Shown piece by piece: positions 10,154-24,230 of a DNA stretch of 25,073 nucleotides. Position numbers and translations under genes: made by a program. A model generated the notes under the pieces. That model was not told the origin of the DNA. It did no database searches and worked only from the letters and a program-made list of their open reading frames with translations. Origin of the DNA: a virus (taxonomy: Duplodnaviria; Caudoviricetes); IMG/VR virus record IMGVR_UViG_3300020239_000022, positions 1-25,073 of that record; one strand, written 5' to 3'. How positions within the stretch are numbered: the stretch's first letter is position 1; each line of letters opens with the position of its first letter.

Positions 10154-13100
10154 TTAGGTGTTGGGTCTTTCACCAACTGACATAAGACCCCTGTTGTTCA
10201 TATTTTCTAGAACATTGGAGCCTATATATTCTGTTAATTTCTTAGGTATAATGTATTCACCGTTGTGTACATTAACTGGTACTTTACCACCAGATTTAAG
10301 ATTTGTGCCTGCTTCGTTAGCTGCTCTTTGAACCATTCTGTTTATAGTGTCTTCACCATAAAGGGCTACTGCAGGCTGAGAGAGTACAAAATCTCCCTCT
10401 TTTAAAGTCATTGGAACGTCATCTGCTCTTGCAGACGGTGGAGCTTTGCCTTTTTTATTGACAAGTCCGTAATTCTTTGCTTGGTTACTATTATACAACA
10501 CTTTTTGATTTTTGTCAAGTATTTTTCCGCCATCTTGCATAAAAGACAGGCTACTCATGTCAAAACCAGTGTTTTTTAAACCTGCCTGTACTTCTTCTGC
10601 AGATTTTACTACTCCTGTATAATGTGTTAAATCTGTAATTTTGTTTTCAGCAATATACGCTAAATCAGCATACAAAGCTTCATATAAAGCCTCTAAACCT
10701 TCTTTTGTAGCTTGGAAATGCCTACGATAAACTTTACCTCCGTCTTGTGTAGACTGATCTTTACCATCATAATAGTCTAATCTATTTAAAAACATTTCTC
10801 TAGCAGATAAACCTTCTTGATCTCTATTACCTATAGTATAATATACTCCTGCACCCTTTTTACCTTGAGAATAATGTATTTGTAAGTCACCTTTAAAATC
10901 AAAACCTGTTGTTTTTTCTAATTCTTGTATGTAAGGCATCATAGGGTTTAGTAATTTTTGAGAAAACTCTACATTAGATGGGTTTGCTTTGCTAGGATCA
11001 TAGTCTCCCTGTGAGTAGGTGTTCATTTTAAACTCATCAAAGTCAAATGAAGCGTAGCCTGATTTATATGAAGGTTTTTTAGCTGTTAAGAATTGTAAAG
11101 CCATTGCTGCAATACCTAATACAGGATTTACAGAGAATAAGTAGGATGTTGCTCCTGATATAGCTGCTTGTTCTACATCTCCAGTTCTTAAAAAAGATAC
11201 TACTGCAGCTATTGTAGCTCCTCCTAGTGCTTCACCGCCTCCTATAAATTCACCAACAGCTTCAGCACCATATTCTGTAACTAAGTGTTGTACACCTGCA
11301 GTAAGAGCAGCTTCTTCATCACCGCCTAAAGCTAGTACGCCTGCTATAGAAGTTGCAGCACCACCAAAACCTCTCCATTTTTTAGCAATAGCATCACCTG
11401 CTGCAGTTCCTACTCCTCCTGCTGCCTCTGCAGCCTTTAAAGCATAAGACTCTATAACTTCAGTCTTAATAAACTGTGTACCACCTGCAATAGCAGCTTT
11501 TCCTGCATCACCAGTAACTGCACCTACTAGGATTGCTGCAGTAAATTCATCATATAAGTCTTTTAGTTTTACACTGTATGTGCCATCTTGCAGGGTAAAT
11601 AAATGGGTGTCTCCTAATTTTGCTATAGTATTTCGTATACTTCCTTCAGGAGAAAGTTGTGTTACATCTACTTCTGCTTCTTGTTCTTTTAACCACTCAT
11701 TAAATTCATCATCACTAGCCCAAGGTTGACCTGTATCAGGGTCTCTCATAACTGCCCCTTTTAAGTCTTTAAAAGCTTTAGTGTCATATTTACCAACTAT
11801 ATCACTAATATTAAAAACATCACCTTCAATAACAGCTAATCCATCTTTTAAATTAAATCGTCTACCCCCACCATACCAAGTTTCAAATGCAGTTTTTACT
11901 ACAGAATCACTTATATCAAATATACTGTCTGAAGCTCTAGGATTATTAGGGTCAAATGTACTAACACTAAATAAAGGTTTTACTTCTGTAACTCCTTTAG
12001 CACTTTCACCTGCAGCTACATCACTTGCCGTTCCTAAAACTGTTAGTGCAGCTATTTCACTTTCACTTAAGCCTGTATCTGTAGGAAAATCTATTGTGCT
12101 AGTTAAACCACTAGTATCTGTATAATCTAATGTAGTGCCTTTACCAGAACCACCCATAAACGGAGTAGATATTCTAGGGCTTACATAACCTTCTGGTGGT
12201 CTGAAAGAAGAAATTCGTTCTTCTTTTCGAGGAAAATTAGTAGCTGTTCTAGTTCTGTTTTCAAAATCTGCACCACTTTCACCAGGAGCAGGATTTACAG
12301 AATAAAAACCCTGTGTTGTGTCTACTGTATCTGCACTAGGAATATTATCTACAAAACCTGTAGGTTGTACTGTTTCATTAGGTAAGACTTTAGATGTAAG
12401 GCTTGGTTGAGTAGGTTTAACAAAAAAATCTCCGTCATCAGGGGGAGGAAAAAACCTTATTTCTGTTTCTCCTATACCAAAAGGATTGTCTACTTCTCCG
12501 CCTTCTTGATATCTCCATCTTCCTTGTACACCTACATTAAAATCTCCATCTTTACTATACCTTCCAGATAAAAGAACATTAGGATTTAAATTATATGTAG
12601 CTGTTATTTCTTCATCAGTAAGCGTAGCAGATAAATCTTTATAGTTTGCTCTTAAAAAATCTTCTGTAGCTTCTATATTTAATGGACCTCTATTAACATT
12701 TAATTTAGGTCCTTGTATATTGTCAGCACTTAAACGAACATTAGCATCACCAAATCTAAAAGGATTTCCTTGATAAGAATAATTTTCTTGAGTATCTGCT
12801 ATAAACGTACCATAAGGAGTATATATACCGCCTTCTCCTCTTACATTTCTTTTATCATCCATTCCTATATTTACAAAACCTTGGGGTGATCTAAATCCTA
12901 AATTAACATTACCTCTAACCCTAGCATTTGGACCTTCTTTATTTATATTAGGGTTTACAAAACCAAATCTATCTACAGAGCTATCTGCACCTAACATGTC
13001 TGGTTGTATATACATATTGGTGTCTAAATTCATAAAAGATTTAGTTTCAGGTACATTAGATTGGTACTCATATAAAGCTCCACTATTGTAGTCTTTAGTA

Positions 13101-13642
13101 TGGTCATAACCAAACGGTAAAGTATTTTGAGTAACCCTTTCTATACCTACATCTTTTACATATTTAGATTTTGTATATCTATCTTGTCCTCTAAGTAGTT
13201 CTTTAGTAAATTCAAGGTAATCTCCATTGTCTAAAGCTTCCATAGCACTAGGAAATTTTAAATACCATTCAGTTCCCATGTTGTAGGCTATATCAGTAAA
13301 AGCAGCTATTTTTTCAAACCCTGTAATATTTTTTGCTTTGGCTAATTTTTTTGCAGCCGTATGAGCTTTATTGTATTCTTTTAAAAAACGTTTTTCTGCA
13401 ACATCTTTGCTCATTACATATGCAGGTTTATTAGGGTCTTGTGTCCCATCTTCTAAAAGATTATAAGAAGCATAGTCTTTTTTATCAATCTTAAAACCAT
13501 AACCAATATGAGGAATATCTACAGTATCATCTGTGCCCTCTATTGTAGTAGGAACCATATGTACGTCAGATCGAAAGCCACCCTCTAACCTTTTAATGTT
13601 ATCCTGTAGTTCTTTTTCGTTTGTAATTTTAAGTTTAGCCAT
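10154..13642 (-). CDS. Large internal virion (ejection-type) protein with an N-terminal phage lysozyme (GH24-like) domain (1162 aa)
   Basis: IKRLEG...HIGYG...DIAYNMG...LKFPSAMEALDNGDY...ELL..SKY resembles T4-type lysozyme; Ala/Gly-rich hydrophobic helices at about aa 700-860; C-terminal ADDVPMTLKEGDFVL and VPVNVHNGEYII repeats as seen in phage internal/tape-measure-type proteins. Confidence 0.7.
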   Translation of the reverse strand: MAKLKITNEKELQDNIKRLEGGFRSDVHMVPTTIEGTDDTVDIPHIGYGFKIDKKDYASYNLLEDGTQDPNKPAYVMSKDVAEKRFLKEYNKAHTAAKKLAKAKNITGFEKIAAFTDIAYNMGTEWYLKFPSAMEALDNGDYLEFTKELLRGQDRYTKSKYVKDVGIERVTQNTLPFGYDHTKDYNSGALYEYQSNVPETKSFMNLDTNMYIQPDMLGADSSVDRFGFVNPNINKEGPNARVRGNVNLGFRSPQGFVNIGMDDKRNVRGEGGIYTPYGTFIADTQENYSYQGNPFRFGDANVRLSADNIQGPKLNVNRGPLNIEATEDFLRANYKDLSATLTDEEITATYNLNPNVLLSGRYSKDGDFNVGVQGRWRYQEGGEVDNPFGIGETEIRFFPPPDDGDFFVKPTQPSLTSKVLPNETVQPTGFVDNIPSADTVDTTQGFYSVNPAPGESGADFENRTRTATNFPRKEERISSFRPPEGYVSPRISTPFMGGSGKGTTLDYTDTSGLTSTIDFPTDTGLSESEIAALTVLGTASDVAAGESAKGVTEVKPLFSVSTFDPNNPRASDSIFDISDSVVKTAFETWYGGGRRFNLKDGLAVIEGDVFNISDIVGKYDTKAFKDLKGAVMRDPDTGQPWASDDEFNEWLKEQEAEVDVTQLSPEGSIRNTIAKLGDTHLFTLQDGTYSVKLKDLYDEFTAAILVGAVTGDAGKAAIAGGTQFIKTEVIESYALKAAEAAGGVGTAAGDAIAKKWRGFGGAATSIAGVLALGGDEEAALTAGVQHLVTEYGAEAVGEFIGGGEALGGATIAAVVSFLRTGDVEQAAISGATSYLFSVNPVLGIAAMALQFLTAKKPSYKSGYASFDFDEFKMNTYSQGDYDPSKANPSNVEFSQKLLNPMMPYIQELEKTTGFDFKGDLQIHYSQGKKGAGVYYTIGNRDQEGLSAREMFLNRLDYYDGKDQSTQDGGKVYRRHFQATKEGLEALYEALYADLAYIAENKITDLTHYTGVVKSAEEVQAGLKNTGFDMSSLSFMQDGGKILDKNQKVLYNSNQAKNYGLVNKKGKAPPSARADDVPMTLKEGDFVLSQPAVALYGEDTINRMVQRAANEAGTNLKSGGKVPVNVHNGEYIIPKKLTEYIGSNVLENMNNRGLMSVGERPNT

Positions 13643-13862
13643 TATCCCTCTTAGATTCTGCTCTAACCCACTCCCTCAACTGGAGGAGGGTTGCCAGTAA
13701 AGCCGCCTTCCCCTGGAGTTGGCGTAGTTCCTGTTCCGACTGTGCCACCACCAACGCCTGATGGGTCATTTGGGTTTGCACCTGCAGGAACTCCTCCAGT
13801 GCCTCCCATTGGTCCTTGTTGTTCACCAGGGGCAGGAGCCTCTTCGCCAGTTGTTTGTCCAT
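13635..13862 (-). CDS. Small helical protein (75 aa) overlapping the portal 3' end in another frame
   Basis: LLPLVNNKDQWEALEEFL...ELRQLQGKAALLATLLQLRE resembles the small protein that commonly follows portal in such podoviruses; AAAGGA RBS upstream; its end overlaps the start of the 1162-aa gene. Confidence 0.7.
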   Translation of the reverse strand: MDKQLAKRLLPLVNNKDQWEALEEFLQVQTQMTHQALVVAQSEQELRQLQGKAALLATLLQLREWVRAESKRDNG

Positions 13863-15780
13863 TGTTCAATCCTTTCAGCATTTCAGCAAATATTTGTGCT
13901 TCGTTCATGTCATTAACTAATTCGTCAGGGTCCATGTCCTGAGCTATAGCTAACTCTTTAATCAACGTAGGTAATTTAACGAAAGGAGCAAGCATAGGAT
14001 TAGTTACTGTTTGTAGTAACATTGTTAACCTTTGCGATCTTACTTCTTTCTGCATTACAGACGATGTACCTTTAGGCTTGATCTCCAAATCACCCATTAT
14101 GTCTTCTTCATCCTCTGAGAACTGCATATTCCACATGAACATACTTTCTCCTAGAGGTCTTAGAAGGTGGTCATCTATGTTTTTGATTACGGTTTTAATA
14201 CCTAAAGAGGCAGAACCCATCAACATAGATAATCCTGATGCAGTACGACCAGTACCAGTCACACCTGTTTGTCCGTGACTTATACTTGGTATACCAGTTT
14301 CTTCATCAGCAAGTTGTCTTGCTTTATCATACATTTGTAAATTTTCTACAGCAGTGCTTGGAAATTTAATTCCTGTGATACCTGTACCAGGAGCACCTGA
14401 CTGTCTTCTAAATATCTTTCCAGGGTATATATCCATAGACTGTCCTGGAACCATCATGTTTTCGTCTACTTCAAAAATAAGATTACCTGCTAATGCTAAG
14501 TTATCAATAGCCATACGTACATGTCCATTCATAAGAAGCTGTGCATCTTCCATATTCTCAGCTACACCTATACCAAAAAATCTATATGGGTTCTTTTCGT
14601 AAGGTACAACTTGATATGGTAATCTTTCTGGCACAAATGGGTTAAGAACTACTCTTAATATCTCATTACCACAAATCCAAGCATTAATATGTACTTGATC
14701 TAGGTCAGATGTAGATTCTGGTATGTCTAATTGTATTTCTTTAGCCATTTTAGCATCTAAAACACCCCAATATTCCAATACTTCGTAACGACCTTCACTG
14801 TATGTAGGGTCATTATCAGCATATAAATCATGCTCAAAGTATCTTTCTTCGTACTGTGTGCCCATATATAGTGATGCTTCTATAGCATCTTTGTCAAAAA
14901 ATGGTCTATTAGCAAGGTCACGTAGCTGTGATCTGTTCATTCTATGACGTTCTACTACATATTCTGCATCGTCTAGGCTTACAGCAGAAGGGTCAGGATA
15001 TAAATCCCAACAAGAAACAGCATTTAATCTAGGTACTAACTTATCTTGTGGGTCATAAAATCTAGTACCATCATCATCCTTGGACCATTTGTGTATTACT
15101 TTGTTGTGGTTAAATGGTCCTTTAACAATACCTGTGCCTAACAGACACTGTTCAAAAATACCTTTTCTGAGTTCGGAAACTGCTGAAGCATCTAGTAGTT
15201 GGTCATGGATTAGTTTCTCCATTTTACGAGCTGCTTCCTTAGCAGGAGATAGCTGTGGTTCTCCCATATTAGATGGTCCTGCAGCAAGATTAGCTTCAGC
15301 CATATCTTTTCCATATGGACCTAATTCTAATTCTTGTTGTTCTGGTTCTGTAGCTTCTAAAGCTCCTGCAGGTAAGTCTCTACCATCCCCTTCATACCCA
15401 TAAGGGTCTACTTGTTGATCTATTGGCGTTTCTAGGTGAACAAACTCTTCTATGCCTTCAGGCACAGGAGTAGGGTCTACAGCAATAGGAACTTTACCAT
15501 TAGAGAAAAGTATATCTACTAGCTGCCCAAAAGCAGCAAGCACTTTTACTTTTGTTATTTTAACAGTAACTTTAGAACGTTCTGATTGCCTATAGTCTTC
15601 ACTATCTTCTGAAGTTCCTCTATAGTTTTTGTAAGCACGTAACCAACGCTGTTCATCAGCTAAACGACCATCTTCTGCTTGTTTATACTTTGATCTTATG
15701 TAGCCTGCTAAACCGACCATTTCCTCATCGGTAATGTCTTTCTGTTCGCCAGTGCCTATTAGTTCACCTATCTCAGCCAT
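13663..15780 (-). CDS. Portal protein (705 aa)
   Basis: EQRWLRAYKNYRG, TKVKVLAAFGQLVDILF, GTGIVKGP, VSCWDLYPDP, FFGIGVAENMEDAQ, GRTASGLSMLM, VIKNIDD: podovirus portal motifs; between terminase and scaffold. Confidence 0.9.
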   Translation of the reverse strand: MAEIGELIGTGEQKDITDEEMVGLAGYIRSKYKQAEDGRLADEQRWLRAYKNYRGTSEDSEDYRQSERSKVTVKITKVKVLAAFGQLVDILFSNGKVPIAVDPTPVPEGIEEFVHLETPIDQQVDPYGYEGDGRDLPAGALEATEPEQQELELGPYGKDMAEANLAAGPSNMGEPQLSPAKEAARKMEKLIHDQLLDASAVSELRKGIFEQCLLGTGIVKGPFNHNKVIHKWSKDDDGTRFYDPQDKLVPRLNAVSCWDLYPDPSAVSLDDAEYVVERHRMNRSQLRDLANRPFFDKDAIEASLYMGTQYEERYFEHDLYADNDPTYSEGRYEVLEYWGVLDAKMAKEIQLDIPESTSDLDQVHINAWICGNEILRVVLNPFVPERLPYQVVPYEKNPYRFFGIGVAENMEDAQLLMNGHVRMAIDNLALAGNLIFEVDENMMVPGQSMDIYPGKIFRRQSGAPGTGITGIKFPSTAVENLQMYDKARQLADEETGIPSISHGQTGVTGTGRTASGLSMLMGSASLGIKTVIKNIDDHLLRPLGESMFMWNMQFSEDEEDIMGDLEIKPKGTSSVMQKEVRSQRLTMLLQTVTNPMLAPFVKLPTLIKELAIAQDMDPDELVNDMNEAQIFAEMLKGLNNGQTTGEEAPAPGEQQGPMGGTGGVPAGANPNDPSGVGGGTVGTGTTPTPGEGGFTGNPPPVEGVG

Positions 15781-15781
15781 T

Positions 15782-15979
15782 TTAGTAGTCTTTTTGGTCA
15801 GCTAAAGCATTAAAGTTAGAATCTACTTGATTCTTGCCTGAAAGGCTTTTTTCGTTAACAGATGATTCTTCTGCATGGGAATACTTTGTTTTAACCCAAC
15901 TTTCCATTTTTTCTCTGGATAGTTTTGTTTCGTCTTCCATGCCAAGGTCACCTTGTTTGTATTTACCGTATAGTGGCAT
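15782..15979 (-). CDS. Hypothetical protein (65 aa) upstream of portal
   Basis: AAGGAG RBS inside the 3' end of the upstream gene; stop lies 1 nt before the portal ATG. Confidence 0.7.
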   Translation of the reverse strand: MPLYGKYKQGDLGMEDETKLSREKMESWVKTKYSHAEESSVNEKSLSGKNQVDSNFNALADQKDY

Positions 15980-18900
15980 CTTCTTCTCCTTTTGGTTGGT
16001 TAATAAAATTTAAATTATTCATTTGATTTCTTATTTCTTCTGCTTTAGGGTCTCTAATAAATTTTTTAATTATTTTGCCCCCATATTCATCTTCTATTCT
16101 TTGTGCATCATCTCTTCTTCTTTGAACGGTAGCTTCTTTTTCAGGAAGAAATTTGCTTATTTCTTCATCTGACGTTCTTCTTGCAATATCTGGAGCAGCA
16201 CCTGCTAATTCAGATTCACTTAATTCTTCCATTGTGCCTGCAAAAAAATCTGGGTTTCCTGTACCGAAAGCACTTGCTGCAATAAAACTTCTTCCTATAT
16301 CTTTAGCTTTTTCTTTATAAACTTCTCCAGTAGTTACTTCTTTTTCAGGTGCTTTTGTTTTACTTATTAATTTAGCTGCTACTTCTGGTGATGATTTTTC
16401 TAAAAAAGTTCTTGTTTCTTTAGGGTCAGCACTAGGAGTAAACCCTAATTCATCTGTTGGTAAAAGTTCTTTACCTAAAACATCTTCACCTAAAGTGCTC
16501 ATATCAGCAAAATAACTTCTAGTTCCTAATTCTATAGCAGCCTCAAGACCAATAGCTGATGCTCTAGCACTAGTGCCATAAAAAGGAATTATAAAAGCTG
16601 CACCTTTTCCAAAACCTTTTAATGTAGTATTTAATAATTTTACATACTTATGTTCATTTGTAGGTTTATATCCACCTTTTATAGTTTGTTTAAAATCTCC
16701 CTCTGTCGTATCTTCTACATCATCTATATCATTAAATATAACAGCAGACCTTTTTGCAGTTCGTTCTATTCCTTTTGCTACTACAATTTGATCTGGGTCA
16801 GGGTAAGCAGCCTGAAACACCTGATTAAAACCAGTAGATCGTATTTCAGGAACAAAAGGTGTAGATGTTCTTAAATCTACAGTACCATCTTTTTTAAATT
16901 TAATTTTTTCTTTTAGTGGAGTTTCTAAATCTCCATCTTTTAATAATTCTTGTTCAGAAAAAAATACTACATCATCTATGATACCCTGTTCATTAAAAAA
17001 TTGTAAATAAGGTTCAAGCCTCATTCTATTTAATACTTCTTCTGGATATATTCTTTTTAAGTTATCACTAACTTCAGGAAAAGCATCAGGGTTATCATTA
17101 ATCACTGATTTAAGATAGTCTCTACTAATGTGACTAAAATCTTTATTATCACCTATAGGCTGAATAGATATAGCAATTCTATCTACTATTTCTCTTATAT
17201 TTAAATCCCTACCTGAAAGATTGGAATATCCTACAGAAAATTTTTGACCTTGTTTAGTTTTTAAAAAATTATCTAAAGCATCCTCTATCATTACCTTTTG
17301 ATATTTAAATCTTTCTGCACCTGAGTTAGCAACATTAGGAGGATATTGTAAATAATCTAATTGGTCTACTATTCTTTTTGTTAAATAATCAAATCTAGAA
17401 ACTTCTTCTAAAGTAAGAAATATATCATTTACAACTTTTTTATCTAACTTTAATTCTGCACCTTTATTACCTAAAAATTTTGTTCCTGAGAATATTTCAG
17501 ACAAACCTTTACTATTATTATCCCAACTACTAGAATCCCAATCTAACATGTCTCCTGCATTGTATTTATATATAGCTGCTTCATCTAATAAATTACCTAA
17601 CATTTTCTTAACATTATTATTATATCTGTTAAAATCTAAAGCATCTATAGATTCTTCTACAGCTTTTGTTGCATTATTTTCATCTAGTATTACATTCTTT
17701 TTAATTTTTGTTTCAGATTCTCTATCATACATATCATCAATAGCATCTGTTTGTTTTTTATCAAATACTGCCTGAGCTATTGCAGCCTTGTTCCAATTAC
17801 CCATCCTAGCTCTATCTATTTTTTCTTTTGTAGAATAGTCTGGAAAATTTCCTATAGTAGGTTCTTTTGTACCTTTAGGTACTTTTATATCTAATTTATC
17901 AGAAGTTACACCTAATTCTATTTGTTTTAGTCTATCTACCTGATCGTCTACAGATAGTATCTCTACACTGGGAGCAAATTTTTGATTAAAACTTTTACCT
18001 GATTGTTTGTACCTACTCGTTTTTGTAAACTTAGAAATCTCTTCGTCTGTTTTTAAATCTATTTGTTTAATATTCTGCTCTACTATTTTTTTATTTACAA
18101 TTTCTTTTTTTCTATTTATTAATTTTATGTTTTCATCTATCTCTATATGTTTTTGATAAGTTCTATCATATTCATAAAACTGTCTTTGAAAATCTAAATG
18201 AGTATCTAATATGTCTGCTTGTTCAGGAAGTATGTCAAATTGTTTTATGATACTACTTCTAGGATTTAAAGCATCAGAAGCATAAAATACTTTCATTAAG
18301 TTATCCTTGTGACCTAATATTTCTTGAACATATTTAGAATCAAGACCTGCTTGTATAGCCATAGTAGCCCAAGCCTTTCTAAATTTATGAGTTTTTTCTC
18401 TGTTCCATACTTTAATATCAAACAAGGCTTCACCGTTGGGTCCTCTTTTTTGTAATACTTTGTCTAGCCTACCTAAAACTACATTATCAGATACAGGTTT
18501 TGATATATCTGTAGGTGATGGAAACAACAAAGAATTAGGTTTTAGTTTTTTTAATTTTACTAATTCCATTAAGTCTTTCTTCATAGTTTTAGACATAGGC
18601 ACTATTCTTTTCTTTTTACCTGAACCTCCCTCACCTTTGCCTCTTTCTATATATATTAAGTTTTTGTCAAAATCTATTTCTTTTAATTTTAAAGAACTAA
18701 GATCACCTACTCTAGCTCCTGTATGTAATTGCATCTTCATTAAAAGATAATAATCATCTCCCATATTTTTTAGTTCATCTAAAACTGCATTGACACTTAT
18801 AAAATCTCTGGCATTTTTTTTAGAAACACTTATCATATTCATGCCTGATTCAATTACATTAGATTTAGGCAGACTCTTTATGTTGTCTTGCATAGCTTTA

Positions 18901-18986
18901 TATTGCTTTTTTTGCAAAGGAGACCAATTACTTTGGTCTGAGTTAGACCATTTAATTGTTTCATATCCGTATGTTTTAGTTGCCAT
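15963..18986 (-). CDS. 1007-aa protein with an N-terminal tyrosine recombinase/integrase catalytic domain and a long unknown C-terminal region
   Basis: LHTGAR(92)VGDLSSLKLKEIDF, GK(117)G, KRIVPM, LLFPS, H(200)KFR(203)KAWAT, VQEILGH(226), VFY(235): the complete R-K-HxxR-H-Y catalytic set. Confidence 0.85.
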   Translation of the reverse strand: MATKTYGYETIKWSNSDQSNWSPLQKKQYKAMQDNIKSLPKSNVIESGMNMISVSKKNARDFISVNAVLDELKNMGDDYYLLMKMQLHTGARVGDLSSLKLKEIDFDKNLIYIERGKGEGGSGKKKRIVPMSKTMKKDLMELVKLKKLKPNSLLFPSPTDISKPVSDNVVLGRLDKVLQKRGPNGEALFDIKVWNREKTHKFRKAWATMAIQAGLDSKYVQEILGHKDNLMKVFYASDALNPRSSIIKQFDILPEQADILDTHLDFQRQFYEYDRTYQKHIEIDENIKLINRKKEIVNKKIVEQNIKQIDLKTDEEISKFTKTSRYKQSGKSFNQKFAPSVEILSVDDQVDRLKQIELGVTSDKLDIKVPKGTKEPTIGNFPDYSTKEKIDRARMGNWNKAAIAQAVFDKKQTDAIDDMYDRESETKIKKNVILDENNATKAVEESIDALDFNRYNNNVKKMLGNLLDEAAIYKYNAGDMLDWDSSSWDNNSKGLSEIFSGTKFLGNKGAELKLDKKVVNDIFLTLEEVSRFDYLTKRIVDQLDYLQYPPNVANSGAERFKYQKVMIEDALDNFLKTKQGQKFSVGYSNLSGRDLNIREIVDRIAISIQPIGDNKDFSHISRDYLKSVINDNPDAFPEVSDNLKRIYPEEVLNRMRLEPYLQFFNEQGIIDDVVFFSEQELLKDGDLETPLKEKIKFKKDGTVDLRTSTPFVPEIRSTGFNQVFQAAYPDPDQIVVAKGIERTAKRSAVIFNDIDDVEDTTEGDFKQTIKGGYKPTNEHKYVKLLNTTLKGFGKGAAFIIPFYGTSARASAIGLEAAIELGTRSYFADMSTLGEDVLGKELLPTDELGFTPSADPKETRTFLEKSSPEVAAKLISKTKAPEKEVTTGEVYKEKAKDIGRSFIAASAFGTGNPDFFAGTMEELSESELAGAAPDIARRTSDEEISKFLPEKEATVQRRRDDAQRIEDEYGGKIIKKFIRDPKAEEIRNQMNNLNFINQPKGEEDATIR

Positions 18987-20660
18987 CTAGTATCCAAATA
19001 TAGGGTCTTGCACCTCATACCTATCAAATTCTTTAGGTTTTCTAAACCTAGGATGATAGTATGGGCTGTTAACTAATCTTGTCATGCACATATATCTTAA
19101 AGCATCGTAAGCATGATCTTCTGCTTTTGTATCTACATCCTCTGGATTTGTTTTACTTAGAGGTAGTGTAGGTAAAGTTCTTATCAACTGGCTACAGTGA
19201 TTAAATATTCTAAGTCTAGGTTCTCCCATGTCATTCATACCTAAACGTTTATGCATCTCTATCTTACCTGCCAGTCTGTCTCTATTAGAAGCCATCCATC
19301 TTAGATTAAACCTATTCATGGACTCTGCTATACTTAAACCATGCCCTGTTCTACTAAAACATGATTCGTCTAATACTGCTGTTTGCATAGTAGGATCATC
19401 ATACTCTAGTTCCATAATCCTTTCTGCTAACCCTTCTCCTGTGTAGCCTTTTCCGTAAAGCTCTCTATATATCCATAGGTTACCATCATAATCGACAGCA
19501 CCCCATAAAACACAAGAAGGACTAGAGTAACCGTAGTCTGCAGCCCTAATACGAGCCCAAGACCTAGGAATCTCAAAGGGGTCAACAACATGTACTGAAC
19601 GATCAAACTCAGCAAACGCTGCACCATCTGTGACATCCCAGTCTCCTTCTAATAATCTTCTTCTCTCTACTTCTGGTAGAGAATACAACATAGCCTCATA
19701 TTCCCCTGAAGCTATAAGGTAGGGGTTATCCGTTAATCTTGCAGGGATGAATCTTCTTTGGAAGAGGGGCTTTCCTGCTTTTTCTTGGGCTGAGGCTCCG
19801 TATCTGAGGATAGCACCTGATTCAACATCTTTAGCCCAAAAAGGCGTATTTGGCTCGGCAGCATCAATATACATTTTTTTAACCCACCAACCGCCCATTC
19901 CACCTGGGTTAGCTGTGCAACGCATGTACGGTATAATGCTTTGATCCGTAGTACGGAGTCTTGAACGAAGGTACTCCCATACGTAAGGAGTTGGGTAATG
20001 CGTGATTTCATCGATTGCAATCCAGTTAAAACTTTGTCCTTGATATCTTGTAACATCTGTGTCTCTATCTAAATATGAAAATAAAATCGTAGCCCCTGAT
20101 GGGAATACCCAAGTCGATTTACTTTCTCTAAATATAGCTTCTGGGAAAGCCTTCTTATATAATTGCCTACTTTTGTCTATAAGCTCTGTTAGTTCGCCCA
20201 ATGTCCTTCTAAGAAGCAATCCTCTATGATTAGGATTGTGGGCATATCTTAATGCATCTGCAAGTAGGGCATATGATTTACCTCCACCTGCTGCACCACC
20301 ATAAAGAACATCACGTTCAGGTGCTGCTAGGAACTCCATCTGAGGACCTGGATTCGGCTTGAACGCAACTTCCTGTTCCGCAACAAACTCCTGAAACGCA
20401 GTTGGTGCATCCGCAAGCACATCTTCCGTTATCGCAGCCTTTCCCTCTATCGCCTTGTCGAGGTGTTTGAACTTCTGTATCTTTTCTTTCTTTAATTGTT
20501 TCTGCCTCGATAGTTGGTTCTTATGTTTCTTAATCTTCTTGTCTCTATACCGCAACTGGGCTAGAGCAGCTCTACGAGCCTTTTCTTTAGCTGATAATCT
20601 ATACCGACCTTTCTCTCCTTCTTTGAGTTTAGGTCTTCCTTTTTTCTTAGGTGTTTCCAA
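18987..20660 (-). CDS. terL: Terminase large subunit (557 aa)
   Basis: Walker A YGGAAGGGKS, Walker B WIAIDE, motif III CTANPGG, nuclease motifs AADYG and DHAYDALRY. Confidence 0.95.
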   Translation of the reverse strand: METPKKKGRPKLKEGEKGRYRLSAKEKARRAALAQLRYRDKKIKKHKNQLSRQKQLKKEKIQKFKHLDKAIEGKAAITEDVLADAPTAFQEFVAEQEVAFKPNPGPQMEFLAAPERDVLYGGAAGGGKSYALLADALRYAHNPNHRGLLLRRTLGELTELIDKSRQLYKKAFPEAIFRESKSTWVFPSGATILFSYLDRDTDVTRYQGQSFNWIAIDEITHYPTPYVWEYLRSRLRTTDQSIIPYMRCTANPGGMGGWWVKKMYIDAAEPNTPFWAKDVESGAILRYGASAQEKAGKPLFQRRFIPARLTDNPYLIASGEYEAMLYSLPEVERRRLLEGDWDVTDGAAFAEFDRSVHVVDPFEIPRSWARIRAADYGYSSPSCVLWGAVDYDGNLWIYRELYGKGYTGEGLAERIMELEYDDPTMQTAVLDESCFSRTGHGLSIAESMNRFNLRWMASNRDRLAGKIEMHKRLGMNDMGEPRLRIFNHCSQLIRTLPTLPLSKTNPEDVDTKAEDHAYDALRYMCMTRLVNSPYYHPRFRKPKEFDRYEVQDPIFGY

Positions 20661-21096
20661 GTACTTCAGCCTCTACATCTGATAGTTCTAACTCTTCTGC
20701 TTTTTTTGCAGGTAACAAAACAACAGCATGTACGTGTTTGTTTTCTGTTACTACTTCTTGTCGTTTAGATATACCACATCTATCAAGTATGTCAGTTGCT
20801 GCTTCAAACCTAAGTTTCTGTCTAGCTATTGGTTCTTCTGTTGTTCCTGATAAAGCATCCTTTATCTGTCCTACTGCATTAGCTGTTGTCGTTGCTAGCA
20901 ACTCTTTTGCTCTGTCTATAATGTGAGGTCGCATAGCTTTCGATACTGAAGACCTTGAGGACTCCGAATAGCCTGCTTGCAATAGACTTTGGGTGATATT
21001 CCCAAAGGTTTTTTCTCCTTCCGCAAAGTATGCGTCAAGAAAATTCTGTTGTTTCTCTGTTAATTCTTGTGATTTTTTACGTTGTGGTGTTAACAT
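20647..21096 (-). CDS. terS: Terminase small subunit (149 aa)
   Basis: LTEKQQNFLDAY...GNITQSLLQAGYS helix-turn-helix start and AATDILDRCG motif; overlaps the terL start. Confidence 0.8.
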   Translation of the reverse strand: MLTPQRKKSQELTEKQQNFLDAYFAEGEKTFGNITQSLLQAGYSESSRSSVSKAMRPHIIDRAKELLATTTANAVGQIKDALSGTTEEPIARQKLRFEAATDILDRCGISKRQEVVTENKHVHAVVLLPAKKAEELELSDVEAEVLGNT

Positions 21097-21422
21097 TATC
21101 TTGGATATACCTTACCGCCATTGGCGTATCTTTTGTTTTGTGATATATATTTCATTACTCCACCCCTTTTAGCGTAGGTAGAAACGTTAGTAGGCTTACC
21201 TCCTACTCCTTGTGCTTTTGATCTCTTACGTCTTACAGCACTAGCCCTTTGGCTTTTAGACATTCTATTTGCTTGTGCTCTAGGAACACACTTAGGATAT
21301 TTTCTTTTAGAACCTCTAGCAGACTTTCTACCGCAGGATTGAAACTTACCATCTACCTTTTTGGCTCCTATATCTACCCAATCGCCTTTCGGTCCTTTGC
21401 CAAACCATTCTTTTAGGCTCAC
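21096..21422 (-). CDS. Small basic protein (108 aa), DUF5872-like C-terminal half
   Basis: GTG start overlapping the upstream TGA; LKEWF...WVDIG...CGR...KYPKCVP motif seen in phage/viral basic proteins; ends in KRYANGGKVYPR. Confidence 0.7.
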   Translation of the reverse strand: MSLKEWFGKGPKGDWVDIGAKKVDGKFQSCGRKSARGSKRKYPKCVPRAQANRMSKSQRASAVRRKRSKAQGVGGKPTNVSTYAKRGGVMKYISQNKRYANGGKVYPR

Positions 21423-21589
21423 TTATAACCTCCGCCACGTTTTTTATATTCTCTAACTAGCCATGCATTTGCATATGCTGAAGGGTAAACCTTAAATTTT
21501 CTTTTAGCTGCTGCTTTTACAGAAGCATATAGTTTAGGATTTGTAGGTGTAGGACCCTTCTTCTTTGTTTTTTTCTTTTTAGCTGCCAT
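21419..21589 (-). CDS. Small basic protein (56 aa), DUF5872-like N-terminal half
   Basis: Not in the ORF track. MAAKKKKTKKKGPTPTNPKLYASVKAAAKRKFKVYPSAYANAWLVREYKKRGGGYK; coupled at both ends (TAATG, GTGA). Confidence 0.85.
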   Translation of the reverse strand: MAAKKKKTKKKGPTPTNPKLYASVKAAAKRKFKVYPSAYANAWLVREYKKRGGGYK

Positions 21590-21768
21590 TAGTTGTACCT
21601 ACGTAACAAATGTTCTACACCTCTGTAAGAACCTCGCCTATAACTAACTTTCATTTTTGTTCTGTCAAGTCTGTAATCAGTACCTCTATATTTTTTTTGA
21701 AGACCTTTTCTTATGTTAACTAGAGGATATTTAATAGTTTTTAAATTTGTTTTATGTATTCTTTCCAT
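21589..21768 (-). CDS. Small basic hypothetical protein (59 aa)
   Basis: Start moved from 21780 to the ATG at 21768, which overlaps the upstream TAA; K/R-rich with two YRG motifs. Confidence 0.6.
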   Translation of the reverse strand: MERIHKTNLKTIKYPLVNIRKGLQKKYRGTDYRLDRTKMKVSYRRGSYRGVEHLLRRYN

Positions 21769-22067
21769 TAGCACTTCCACCTTCTTCTAGCTTGCCTAAT
21801 ACGTGAATTAGGATTGTTTCTTGTTTTAGCAGAACTTCTTTTCAGTTGTCCCAGTGATCTTGCACAATAAGACTTACGTCTTTTTGCTGCCTTACTACCT
21901 TTCTTTACTTTACCAGTTACGGCTGTCTTCAGTTTAGAACCAGGGTTTGCCTTTCTGTAGGCTCTTACACCCTTGGCTGTCATACCTGCACCTTTCTTAG
22001 TAGGTCGGTAATTAGCACCCTTACCTTTTGTAGTTTTAGGTATGGACTTGGCTTTCTTCCTAGCCAT
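21768..22067 (-). CDS. Small basic protein (99 aa), DUF6321-like
   Basis: GMTAKGVRAYRKANPGSKLKTAV...RRKSYCARS...PNSRIRQARRRWKC, a widespread phage basic-protein pattern. Confidence 0.8.
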   Translation of the reverse strand: MARKKAKSIPKTTKGKGANYRPTKKGAGMTAKGVRAYRKANPGSKLKTAVTGKVKKGSKAAKRRKSYCARSLGQLKRSSAKTRNNPNSRIRQARRRWKC

Positions 22068-22297
22068 TACATAGTTCCCATAGGTTTCCTTGGGTTAGGC
22101 ATGTTAGCACTTCCACCATACTTTTTGTTTTCAGATGTATAGTTTTTCATTTTGCCACCGTAAGACATTTTCTTTCTAGTCTTACATACGTTGCCGCCAT
22201 GACCCATATCTTTTTTAGGTTTATCAAAAACTCCTATTTGCATAAGATAATCTTTTCTGGTAATCTTACCATCACCACTATGATCTTTTAAACTCAT
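22067..22297 (-). CDS. Small basic protein with an EF-hand-like loop (76 aa)
   Basis: DHSGDGKITRKD loop followed by MGHGG, MSYGG and KKYGG motifs; TAATG coupling at both ends. Confidence 0.75.
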   Translation of the reverse strand: MSLKDHSGDGKITRKDYLMQIGVFDKPKKDMGHGGNVCKTRKKMSYGGKMKNYTSENKKYGGSANMPNPRKPMGTM

Positions 22298-22752
22298 TAT
22301 ATATTCCCCTTTCTTGGATATATTTTACCGCCATTGGCATATCTTTTATTCATGGATGCATAGGCTTTTCCACCACCCATCATGTCTTTTTTCTTTTTCT
22401 CACCATGAACTTTACCACCGCCCTTTTTGCGTGTAGGGGCAGCACCTGGAAGGTTTCTCTTGAAATTTAAATCTTCCATTCGTGACCTGTATCTATCATA
22501 GGTTTTAGGTGGTGAGGCACCTATTGAACGTTTTGGTGGTTTAGCAGGTAGTAAACGCTTCATTCTTTTTACATCCGCATCAGATACTGACTTACCGCCC
22601 TCCATATCTTGATTTCTCATTGCCATCAGTATAGCTAGTTGTTCTTCTAATTTTTTTATTCTATCTTTATCAGATTCAGATTTTATGTCTTTTTTAAGTT
22701 CTCTTATTTTTCTAGACGCAACACCTGATTTACCTGGTTTGTATCTTGCCAC
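22297..22752 (-). CDS. Basic hypothetical protein (151 aa), first gene of the packaging operon
   Basis: GTG start with a strong TAAGGAG RBS; K/R-rich; ends in YASMNKRYANGGKIYPRKGNI. Confidence 0.8.
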   Translation of the reverse strand: MARYKPGKSGVASRKIRELKKDIKSESDKDRIKKLEEQLAILMAMRNQDMEGGKSVSDADVKRMKRLLPAKPPKRSIGASPPKTYDRYRSRMEDLNFKRNLPGAAPTRKKGGGKVHGEKKKKDMMGGGKAYASMNKRYANGGKIYPRKGNI

Positions 22753-22889: not shown

Positions 22890-22918
22890 ATTATAGAATC
22901 AATGTTGCATTTTGTCAA
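22890..22918 (-). promoter_or_regulatory. Perfect-consensus sigma70 promoter for the packaging/morphogenesis operon
   Basis: Minus strand TTGACA (22918-22913), 17-nt spacer, TATAAT (22895-22890); A/T tract upstream (UP-element-like). Confidence 0.85.
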
Positions 22919-22937: not shown

Positions 22938-22966
22938 TTGACAGTATGCATATTTGCATGTACAAT
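22938..22966 (+). promoter_or_regulatory. Divergent sigma70 promoter
   Basis: TTGACA (22938-22943), 17-nt spacer, TACAAT (22961-22966). Confidence 0.8.
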
Positions 22967-23514: not shown

Positions 23515-23679
23515 ATGTTACAGAATGAAAAGATTAAATTGTTTCAGAAGTTCCTTGAATATTTACAAGGTAACGAAGAATTAACCAGTCAAGATTGTGA
23601 ATTAATAGAATTATATGGTGAAGAGTTCGACCTGTGGATTGATTACATTATGAGCAAAGAAAAACCCCCCTTAAATTAA
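23515..23679 (+). CDS. Small acidic hypothetical protein (54 aa)
   Basis: Not in the ORF track. MLQNEKIKLFQKFLEYLQGNEELTSQDCELIELYGEEFDLWIDYIMSKEKPPLN; GGAG 6 nt upstream; alternative ATG at 23503; stop lies inside the convergent hairpin. Confidence 0.55.
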   Translation: MLQNEKIKLFQKFLEYLQGNEELTSQDCELIELYGEEFDLWIDYIMSKEKPPLN

Positions 23680-23690
23680 TAAGAGGGGTT
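23656..23690 (-). terminator. Rho-independent terminator (copy A of a repeated 3' element)
   Basis: Minus strand AACCCCTCTTA-TTAATT-TAAGGGGGGTT then TTTCTTT. Confidence 0.8.
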
Positions 23691-24168: not shown

Positions 24169-24230
24169 GAAAAACCCCCCTTGAAATTAATCAAGAGGGG
24201 CACAGGGGAAAATCCTGAAGGTAGGCATTA
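24167..24230. repeat. About 64-bp intergenic repeat, copy B, containing a minus-strand terminator
   Basis: Minus strand CCCCTCTTGA-TTAATT-TCAAGGGGGG-TTTTTCTT; aligns with 23657-23719. Confidence 0.85.

Follow-up and report, generated by a model that had tools for sequence, protein, structure and literature searches.

What would a tyrosine recombinase (YR) of about 1000 amino acids (aa) be doing among the head genes of a tailed phage? The question is raised by a gene that we call X, which lies in the stretch of viral DNA analyzed here (record IMGVR_UViG_3300020239_000022, positions 1 to 25,073; referred to below as the window, 25,073 nucleotides [nt] in all). A preliminary description of the sequence had presented X as a giant YR fusion protein built into the virion assembly operon between terL and portal, and the observation on X is confirmed as real. 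Its adjacency to terL held, but the next gene is a conserved open reading frame (ORF) of 65 aa and not portal; the operon reads terS, terL, X, the 65-aa ORF, portal, a gene for a 1162-aa protein, one for a 279-aa probable scaffold, and the major capsid gene. The terL stop codon TAG is joined directly to the ATG of X, and the ribosome-binding site and ATG of the 65-aa ORF are embedded in the 3′ end of X, both as had been described; this gene spacing suggests that X is cotranscribed with the late genes. X is not an assembly chimera, because the entire ORF was recovered in two independent studies, on contigs of 3202 nt and 3805 nt; full-length homologues were also found repeatedly. The most informative features of the locus are a multiallele polymorphism, modular swapping, and a linked block of recoded sequence in terL.

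The polymorphism concerns the slot between terL and the 65-aa ORF. We collected the best 80 terL loci from IMG/VR and the best 80 from a metagenome collection and defined close relatives as those with terL at least 87% identical. In total, 73 loci were scored, the window included, with the exclusion of 11 loci on contigs that do not extend past the terL stop and of L019, a duplicate of L002. After identical junctions had been removed, 55 distinct close loci were left among those fetched, 30 with a filled slot and 25 with an empty one. The filled alleles encode proteins of approximately 975 to 1144 aa and fall into about nine types: A to G, with the window carrying type A, type I (L127), and type H, which lacks the YR domain (L120, L128, and L132). 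Identity between types is mostly 15 to 30%, even where terL is 99 to 100% identical. In run X5, the type A contig had a depth of 26.9 versus 57 to 69 in the long flanking contigs, consistent with a mixture of alleles in one sample, type A standing at roughly 40 to 45% of the flank. A housekeeping role for X is unsupported, because 25 of 55 relatives lack it and the alleles of the others are so divergent; the empty alleles rule out a core packaging gene, and the earlier suggestions of concatemer resolution or obligatory genome circularization fall on the same two findings.

By sequence, X belongs to the tyrosine recombinase superfamily. PF00589 matches aa 69 to 237 (E 6e-21; 75.4 bits versus a curated cutoff of 27.1), and the catalytic set noted earlier (R92, K117, H200, R203, H226, and Y235) is complete and does not vary among the five closest sequences. 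Of 18 loci that bear a YR domain, all retain R92, K117, and R203, 17 retain H226, and 17 retain Y235, the Tyr of L032 being shifted by one column; position 200, that of the first His, is H, Y, or K in 12, 5, and 1 loci, respectively. The homologues of X also share its length and position. The best matches of the family YR profile are XerC-like proteins, XerA, and IntI4, and a low-confidence model of the domain placed variola TopIB and archaeal Xer level, both at Z 7.9 (root mean square deviation of 3.0 over 91 aligned residues and 3.6 over 101, respectively). Only about 60 to 68 aa precede the domain, bearing out the short N terminus described before. Neither a core-binding (SAM-like, Phage_int_SAM) nor an arm-binding domain was matched in X or in 11 scanned alleles. 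TopIB and telomere-resolvase Pfam domains had no match in X, and domain scans of X and its alleles found no GIY-YIG, HNH, LAGLIDADG, or PD-(D/E)XK nuclease domain.

The part of X that the preliminary description could not recognize is indeed without a match to any PHROG or Pfam family over 757 aa, and those scans found no MuF, LPD, ART, or other polyvalent domain. A full-length AlphaFold2 (AF2) model of X was poor (predicted local distance difference test score [pLDDT], 42.9). The fold of the central domain had no match at an E of ≤0.001 in BFVD and PDB, which does not prove a new fold, and its best VIA score, Z 6.1, lay nearly all on the first 48 residues; ESM Atlas gave no usable match for aa 250 to 1007. 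Among types, the YR and central domains cosegregate, and the C-terminal module is swapped: L013 (type C) and L021 (type G) are 69% identical there and only 27% and 25% identical in their YR and central domains. In type E (L015 and P0022), the YR domain lies in the middle of the protein, and the YR-less type H proteins of approximately 1000 aa (L120:5417-8434, L128:3692-6619, and L132) are homologous to type E (L015) on either side of it (E ~1e-13). The C-terminal module is common to all types, type H included. The hydrophobic stretch that had been remarked on exists at aa 796 to 814 but is mild (Kyte-Doolittle, 1.13) and forms no clear transmembrane helix; a mild hydrophobic segment lies 212 to 303 aa before the C terminus in 27 of 27 proteins. 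We infer that the module is a packaging or delivery signal. Among the matches listed in a profile search of 1.84 billion representatives, 18 reached an E of ≤1e-30, all to parts of the X-family profile, and the others were mostly to the YR domain only; eight that we examined included some X-family members and some apparent chimeras.

How old are the types? A tree was built for 18 loci on the YR and central domains combined. Each of types A, B, C, D, and G comes out as a starred clade in which both terL lineages are represented, and the terL lineage label requires six changes on this tree, no fewer than in shuffles. Between the window and L004, which belong to different lineages, synonymous divergence (dS) of type A is 0.58 to 0.80 over the YR, linker, and central parts, and that of the flanks is 0.69 for terL and 0.72 for portal. 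Because the dS of type A is in the range of that of terL and portal, type A, the type for which this comparison was made, looks vertically inherited through the lineage split rather than brought in by a recent jump. The ratio of nonsynonymous to synonymous divergence (dN/dS) is below 1 for all regions and pairs that gave a ratio; it is 0.00 to 0.32 over the YR domain in all seven YR-bearing pairs and highest, at 0.31 to 0.78, in the C-terminal part. X is thus under purifying selection. The sharing of types across lineages and the divergence of type A in step with terL and portal point to long-term balancing selection.

Occupancy of the slot is mirrored within terL. Upstream of −120, counted from the terL stop, filled and empty alleles are mixed and indistinguishable. 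In lineage 1 (15 filled versus 10 empty), eight near-fixed synonymous sites lie at −94 to −70, a 25-bp block in which filled and empty alleles use different synonymous codons at eight of nine positions, and the filter that picked these sites picked none between −69 and −29. Lineage 2 (8 filled versus 9 empty) has six differing sites at −111 to −76. Further differing sites comprise a few in the last 28 nt of terL and two at −243 and −241 in lineage 2. Block type and occupancy agree at 54 of 55 loci if L013, with a single deviating site, is included. The sole mismatch, L122 (2876-3100), has an empty allele with a filled-type block; immediately downstream, its sequence changes from that of lineage 2 to that of lineage 1, a pattern that marks it as a product of recombination or a mosaic made in assembly. 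Over −60 to −120, divergence is 0.005 among filled alleles of different types versus 0.132 between filled and empty alleles. Plain linkage is insufficient here, because one block is common to different X types, although these are just as unalignable downstream.

The block may be a recoded target site, in the style of homing enzymes, or an mRNA element. RNA hairpins at the block reach −11.8 to −16.0 kcal/mol in empty alleles versus about −8 in five of five filled ones. Over a segment chosen after the fact, the empty-allele hairpins stood out from synonymous recodings (P ≤ 0.03) in all six cases tested, and their stems differ between the two lineages. We found no consistent sign that filled alleles have a substitute hairpin ahead of the 65-aa gene. 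We also considered an internal promoter in the block and rejected it: the 9/12 match at 19085-19056 is no better than chance (28 such matches against 38.9 expected) and occurs in filled and empty alleles of lineage 2 alike.

The reading that we favor, tentatively and at a little short of an even chance, is that X is an optional late, probably virion-delivered DNA-cleaving conflict effector that acts against host defenses or coinfecting phages and occupies a multiallele slot in the head operon. X would be made late through translational coupling to terL and would be packaged and ejected with the genome by means of its swappable C-terminal module. Y235 would then nick or strand-transfer DNA through a covalent 3′-phosphotyrosine, and the central domain would take the place of the absent core-binding domain and set the specificity of each type; rare types would be favored, so that types would be kept for a long time. 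In favor of this reading we count the optional and hypervariable slot, the sharing of types by both terL lineages, the vertical look of type A, the low dN/dS and retained catalytic residues of the YR domain, the swapping of the C-terminal module and its presence in YR-less proteins, and the mild hydrophobic segment. X is encoded among portal-terminase and head genes, as virion-injected effectors are, and its family has a modular, mosaic build with a swappable enzymatic domain. In the main text of Iyer 2017 (PMC5512222), effectors encoded beside portal-terminase genes are treated as likely packaged. The polyvalent or virion-injected effectors covered there (T4 Alt, P1 DarA/B, and MuF fusions) resemble X in being large, modular, mosaic, and portal-terminase adjacent and in joining an enzymatic domain to a common carrier; X differs in having no detected MuF or other polyvalent domain, and its packaging is what we infer.

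Several observations weigh against this reading. The C-terminal module was found on no protein outside the slot family, in a search that was weak, and no cultured member of the family turned up, 50,697 phage records giving only two weak YR-only matches. A close genome has a separate block of large genes that resembles, by size and position, the usual internal-virion cluster. Metatranscriptome run X18 yielded three short contigs in X, which could be DNA, and no target DNA site for X was identified among searches for att, loxP-like, and palindromic sites. Position alone does not imply packaging, because free-standing homing endonucleases likewise cluster beside terminase (PMC10055350).

It is also possible, if on balance doubtful, that X is a virion-delivered self/non-self weapon that covalently cuts the DNA of rival phages, at the empty-type terL block, or a host defense locus. 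Each of the ancient types would then combine its YR active site with a central domain that confers specificity and has an unmatched fold, and the slot would resemble an incompatibility or mating-type locus under balancing selection; it could be a recombinase-based gene drive.

The terL block bears most directly on the idea that X is a homing-like selfish gene or marker exclusion enzyme. Made late, X would nick or cut the empty-type block in coinfection and be copied by gene conversion, and the recoded block would protect X-carrying genomes, a scheme compatible with virion delivery. The recoding of a 25-bp block with silence just downstream and mixing upstream, its agreement with occupancy, and its near identity among filled alleles of different types all speak for such an enzyme, and the free-standing endonucleases of T4 cleave at a distance from where they are inserted and carry flanking sequence along in conversion (PMC2988022). 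Like these endonucleases (T4 Seg/Mob; terminase-adjacent homing endonuclease genes), X is an optional promoterless cassette beside a conserved gene, with filled and empty alleles and linked flanking polymorphism. Yet X has YR chemistry rather than GIY-YIG or HNH, is about 1000 aa long, has many types that persist vertically over a long time, and has YR-less alleles, which themselves carry the filled-type block. Moreover, the empty-type block hardly varies inside a lineage (0.009), contrary to what escape should produce, and it differs between lineages that have the same X types, and the stronger hairpins of empty alleles leave room for an mRNA element. Nine deep types with a single shared target are hard to explain, and no clearly decayed copies of X were seen among the loci examined; L113 and L123, which run into foreign DNA, look like chimeras. 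We consider homing unlikely.

An accessory enzyme of lysogeny or of an episome (an integrase, circularizer, or hairpin-telomere resolvase) that allows X-positive phages to persist, each type recognizing a different host or phage site, strikes us as improbable. The YR domain is nearest by profile to Xer-like site-specific recombinases, X is the sole PF00589 match in G001 (43 kb, 79% complete), and the diversity of types could mirror different attB sites. With the Xer-like and phage integrase recombinases (PF00589; XerA, XerC/D, and IntI4), X has the R-K-H-x-x-R-H-Y set and the fold in common, but its catalytic domain is N terminal, with no detectable core-binding domain and approximately 760 residues after it, and it is an optional gene in a head operon with about nine deep alleles and no att or dif-like site. 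Inspection by eye of the junctions of 39 loci, the window being a partial genome, revealed no att duplication or att-like repeats, and no loxP-like palindrome was found in or near X in the window. Judged by its sequence, X does not have the architecture of a lysogeny integrase, and the earlier view that it is no ordinary one stands on the missing arm- and core-binding matches, the junctions, and the head operon location. Palindromes with arms of at least 11 are absent from window positions 15700-19200, and the few seen elsewhere, in 4 of 12 filled loci, lie in scattered places near shuffle levels; at 22.7 to 24.3 kb, the region named earlier for recombination assays, no palindromic substrate was found beyond terminator hairpins. 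Topoisomerase IB and the telomere resolvases (TelN/TelK, and poxvirus TopIB, which is packaged in the virion) belong to the same catalytic superfamily, but the X profile prefers Xer-like enzymes and no palindromic telomere site was found. No terL relative was detected in 185,579 prokaryote genomes (GTDB) by an exact-peptide scan of limited sensitivity, and the same slot is also filled by YR-less alleles. Phage HMO-2011, which has a related head module (terL 51 to 54%), does carry a PF00589 integrase gene (gp09), but that gene is 879 nt long and lies upstream of the replication genes, and X had no tblastn match to it at an E of 1e-5; HMO-2011-type integrases sit upstream of the replication module (PMC9038755).

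Least probable of all is a packaging helper that works with terminase as a topoisomerase IB-like relaxase or concatemer resolvase: X abuts terL, the low-confidence YR model ties variola TopIB with archaeal Xer, and the first-His position varies as in TopIB and telomere resolvases, but close relatives do without X in 25 of 55 cases, and about nine such divergent types are not expected of a housekeeping enzyme.

As far as literature searches go, no tyrosine recombinase has turned up in the role of injected conflict weapon. Full-text searches, with most subscription papers and supplements outside their scope, brought up neither the X family nor any phage tyrosine recombinase packaged in virions; "recombinase" and "integrase" have 0 occurrences in the main text of PMC5512222, supplements aside, and phage YR-fold topoisomerases have been noted (PMC7824862). 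As a matter of routine, tyrosine recombinases are labeled integrases and taken as a sign that a marine phage is temperate, a practice that would miscall the X family. If packaged, X would be a new enzyme class among phage-injected effectors, with a domain that has no fold match. Deep alleles across wild phage lineages and a 25-bp candidate site make phage-phage or phage-host conflict directly testable here, and the natural YR types may supply a panel of differing DNA specificities.

Table 1. Position of X, its parts, and neighboring features in the window
Feature	Position	Strand	Remarks
Gene X, allele type A of slot family	15963..18986	minus	1007-aa ORF
YR catalytic domain, aa 61-245	18252..18806	minus	PF00589; R92 K117 H200 R203 H226 Y235; basic, pI 9.7
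Linker with predicted long helix, aa 246-380	17847..18251	minus	Low model confidence
Central acidic, mostly helical domain, aa 381-770	16677..17846	minus	AF2 pLDDT 75.9, pTM (predicted template modeling score) 0.77
C-terminal module, aa 771-1007	15966..16676	minus	Mild hydrophobic Gly-rich segment, acidic helices, terminal QMxxL-like motif
Synonymously recoded terL block, −94 to −70 from stop	19056..19080	minus	Separates filled from empty alleles
terL, upstream flank of X	18987..20660	minus	
terS	20647..21096	minus	
Conserved 65-aa ORF, downstream flank of X	15782..15979	minus	Right after terL in empty alleles
Portal	13663..15780	minus	PF23899, E 2e-29
Candidate packaging-operon promoter	22890..22918	minus	Perfect sigma70 consensus, 12/12; pattern match only

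TerL is 51 to 54% identical to those of pelagiphage HTVC033P and HMO-2011, and, judged from TerL, the head module is related to the HMO-2011 marine podovirus group. The hallmarks of that group are a DNA polymerase with a DnaJ insert, the capsid, and TerL; the polymerase gene lies outside the window. Between terL and portal, which adjoin in HMO-2011, HTVC033P has four small genes. Among the best listed matches, 35 more distant IMG/VR loci (terL 60 to 66%) comprised 19 with an empty slot, 11 with basic proteins of 200 to 355 aa (one incomplete), and 5 with proteins of 668 to 730 aa (one incomplete). The full-length basic proteins end in a GG-K-V motif, which is a possible capsid-targeting signal. 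This C terminus is doubled in the slot proteins of L053:11209-12177, L055, L060, L063, L065, L072, L073, and L077, and the motif also terminates small basic ORFs at window positions 21096-22752.

Distant slot proteins of 668 to 748 aa (L079:2705-4711, L083:6779-8869, L084:6858-9050, L098, and L176:6669-8915) show YR-like motifs by eye and may belong to a broader group of diverged late proteins with a YR fold. They have no YR Pfam match, and hhalign gave a probability of 0.14%; L084 reached an E of 2.5e-4 against the YR profile in an eight-sequence set. In ESM Atlas, L079 had leads at 0.86 and neighbors among unnamed viral clusters at 0.92 to 0.93. Weak matches to pilot proteins (L084 to phrog_8693, E 0.013; L055 to Microvir_H, E 0.0072) were not counted as evidence.

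Upstream of the packaging operon, two near-perfect sigma70 sites stand back to back, the one in Table 1 and another at 22938-22966 on the plus strand, and an 11/12 site lies inside the 1162-aa gene (13460-13488, minus). Two similar terminator-like hairpins (24174-24201 and 23663-23690, minus) end small genes before a long noncoding region. The 1162-aa gene that follows portal (10154-13642, minus) has GG-K motifs and, by eye, a lysozyme-like N terminus. Close relatives differ strongly in its length (909 to 1162 aa) and in its N-terminal part, which makes it the second hypervariable slot. The 65-aa ORF has a C-terminal motif like that of HTVC033P gp78 and gp79, which themselves occupy the equivalent place before portal.

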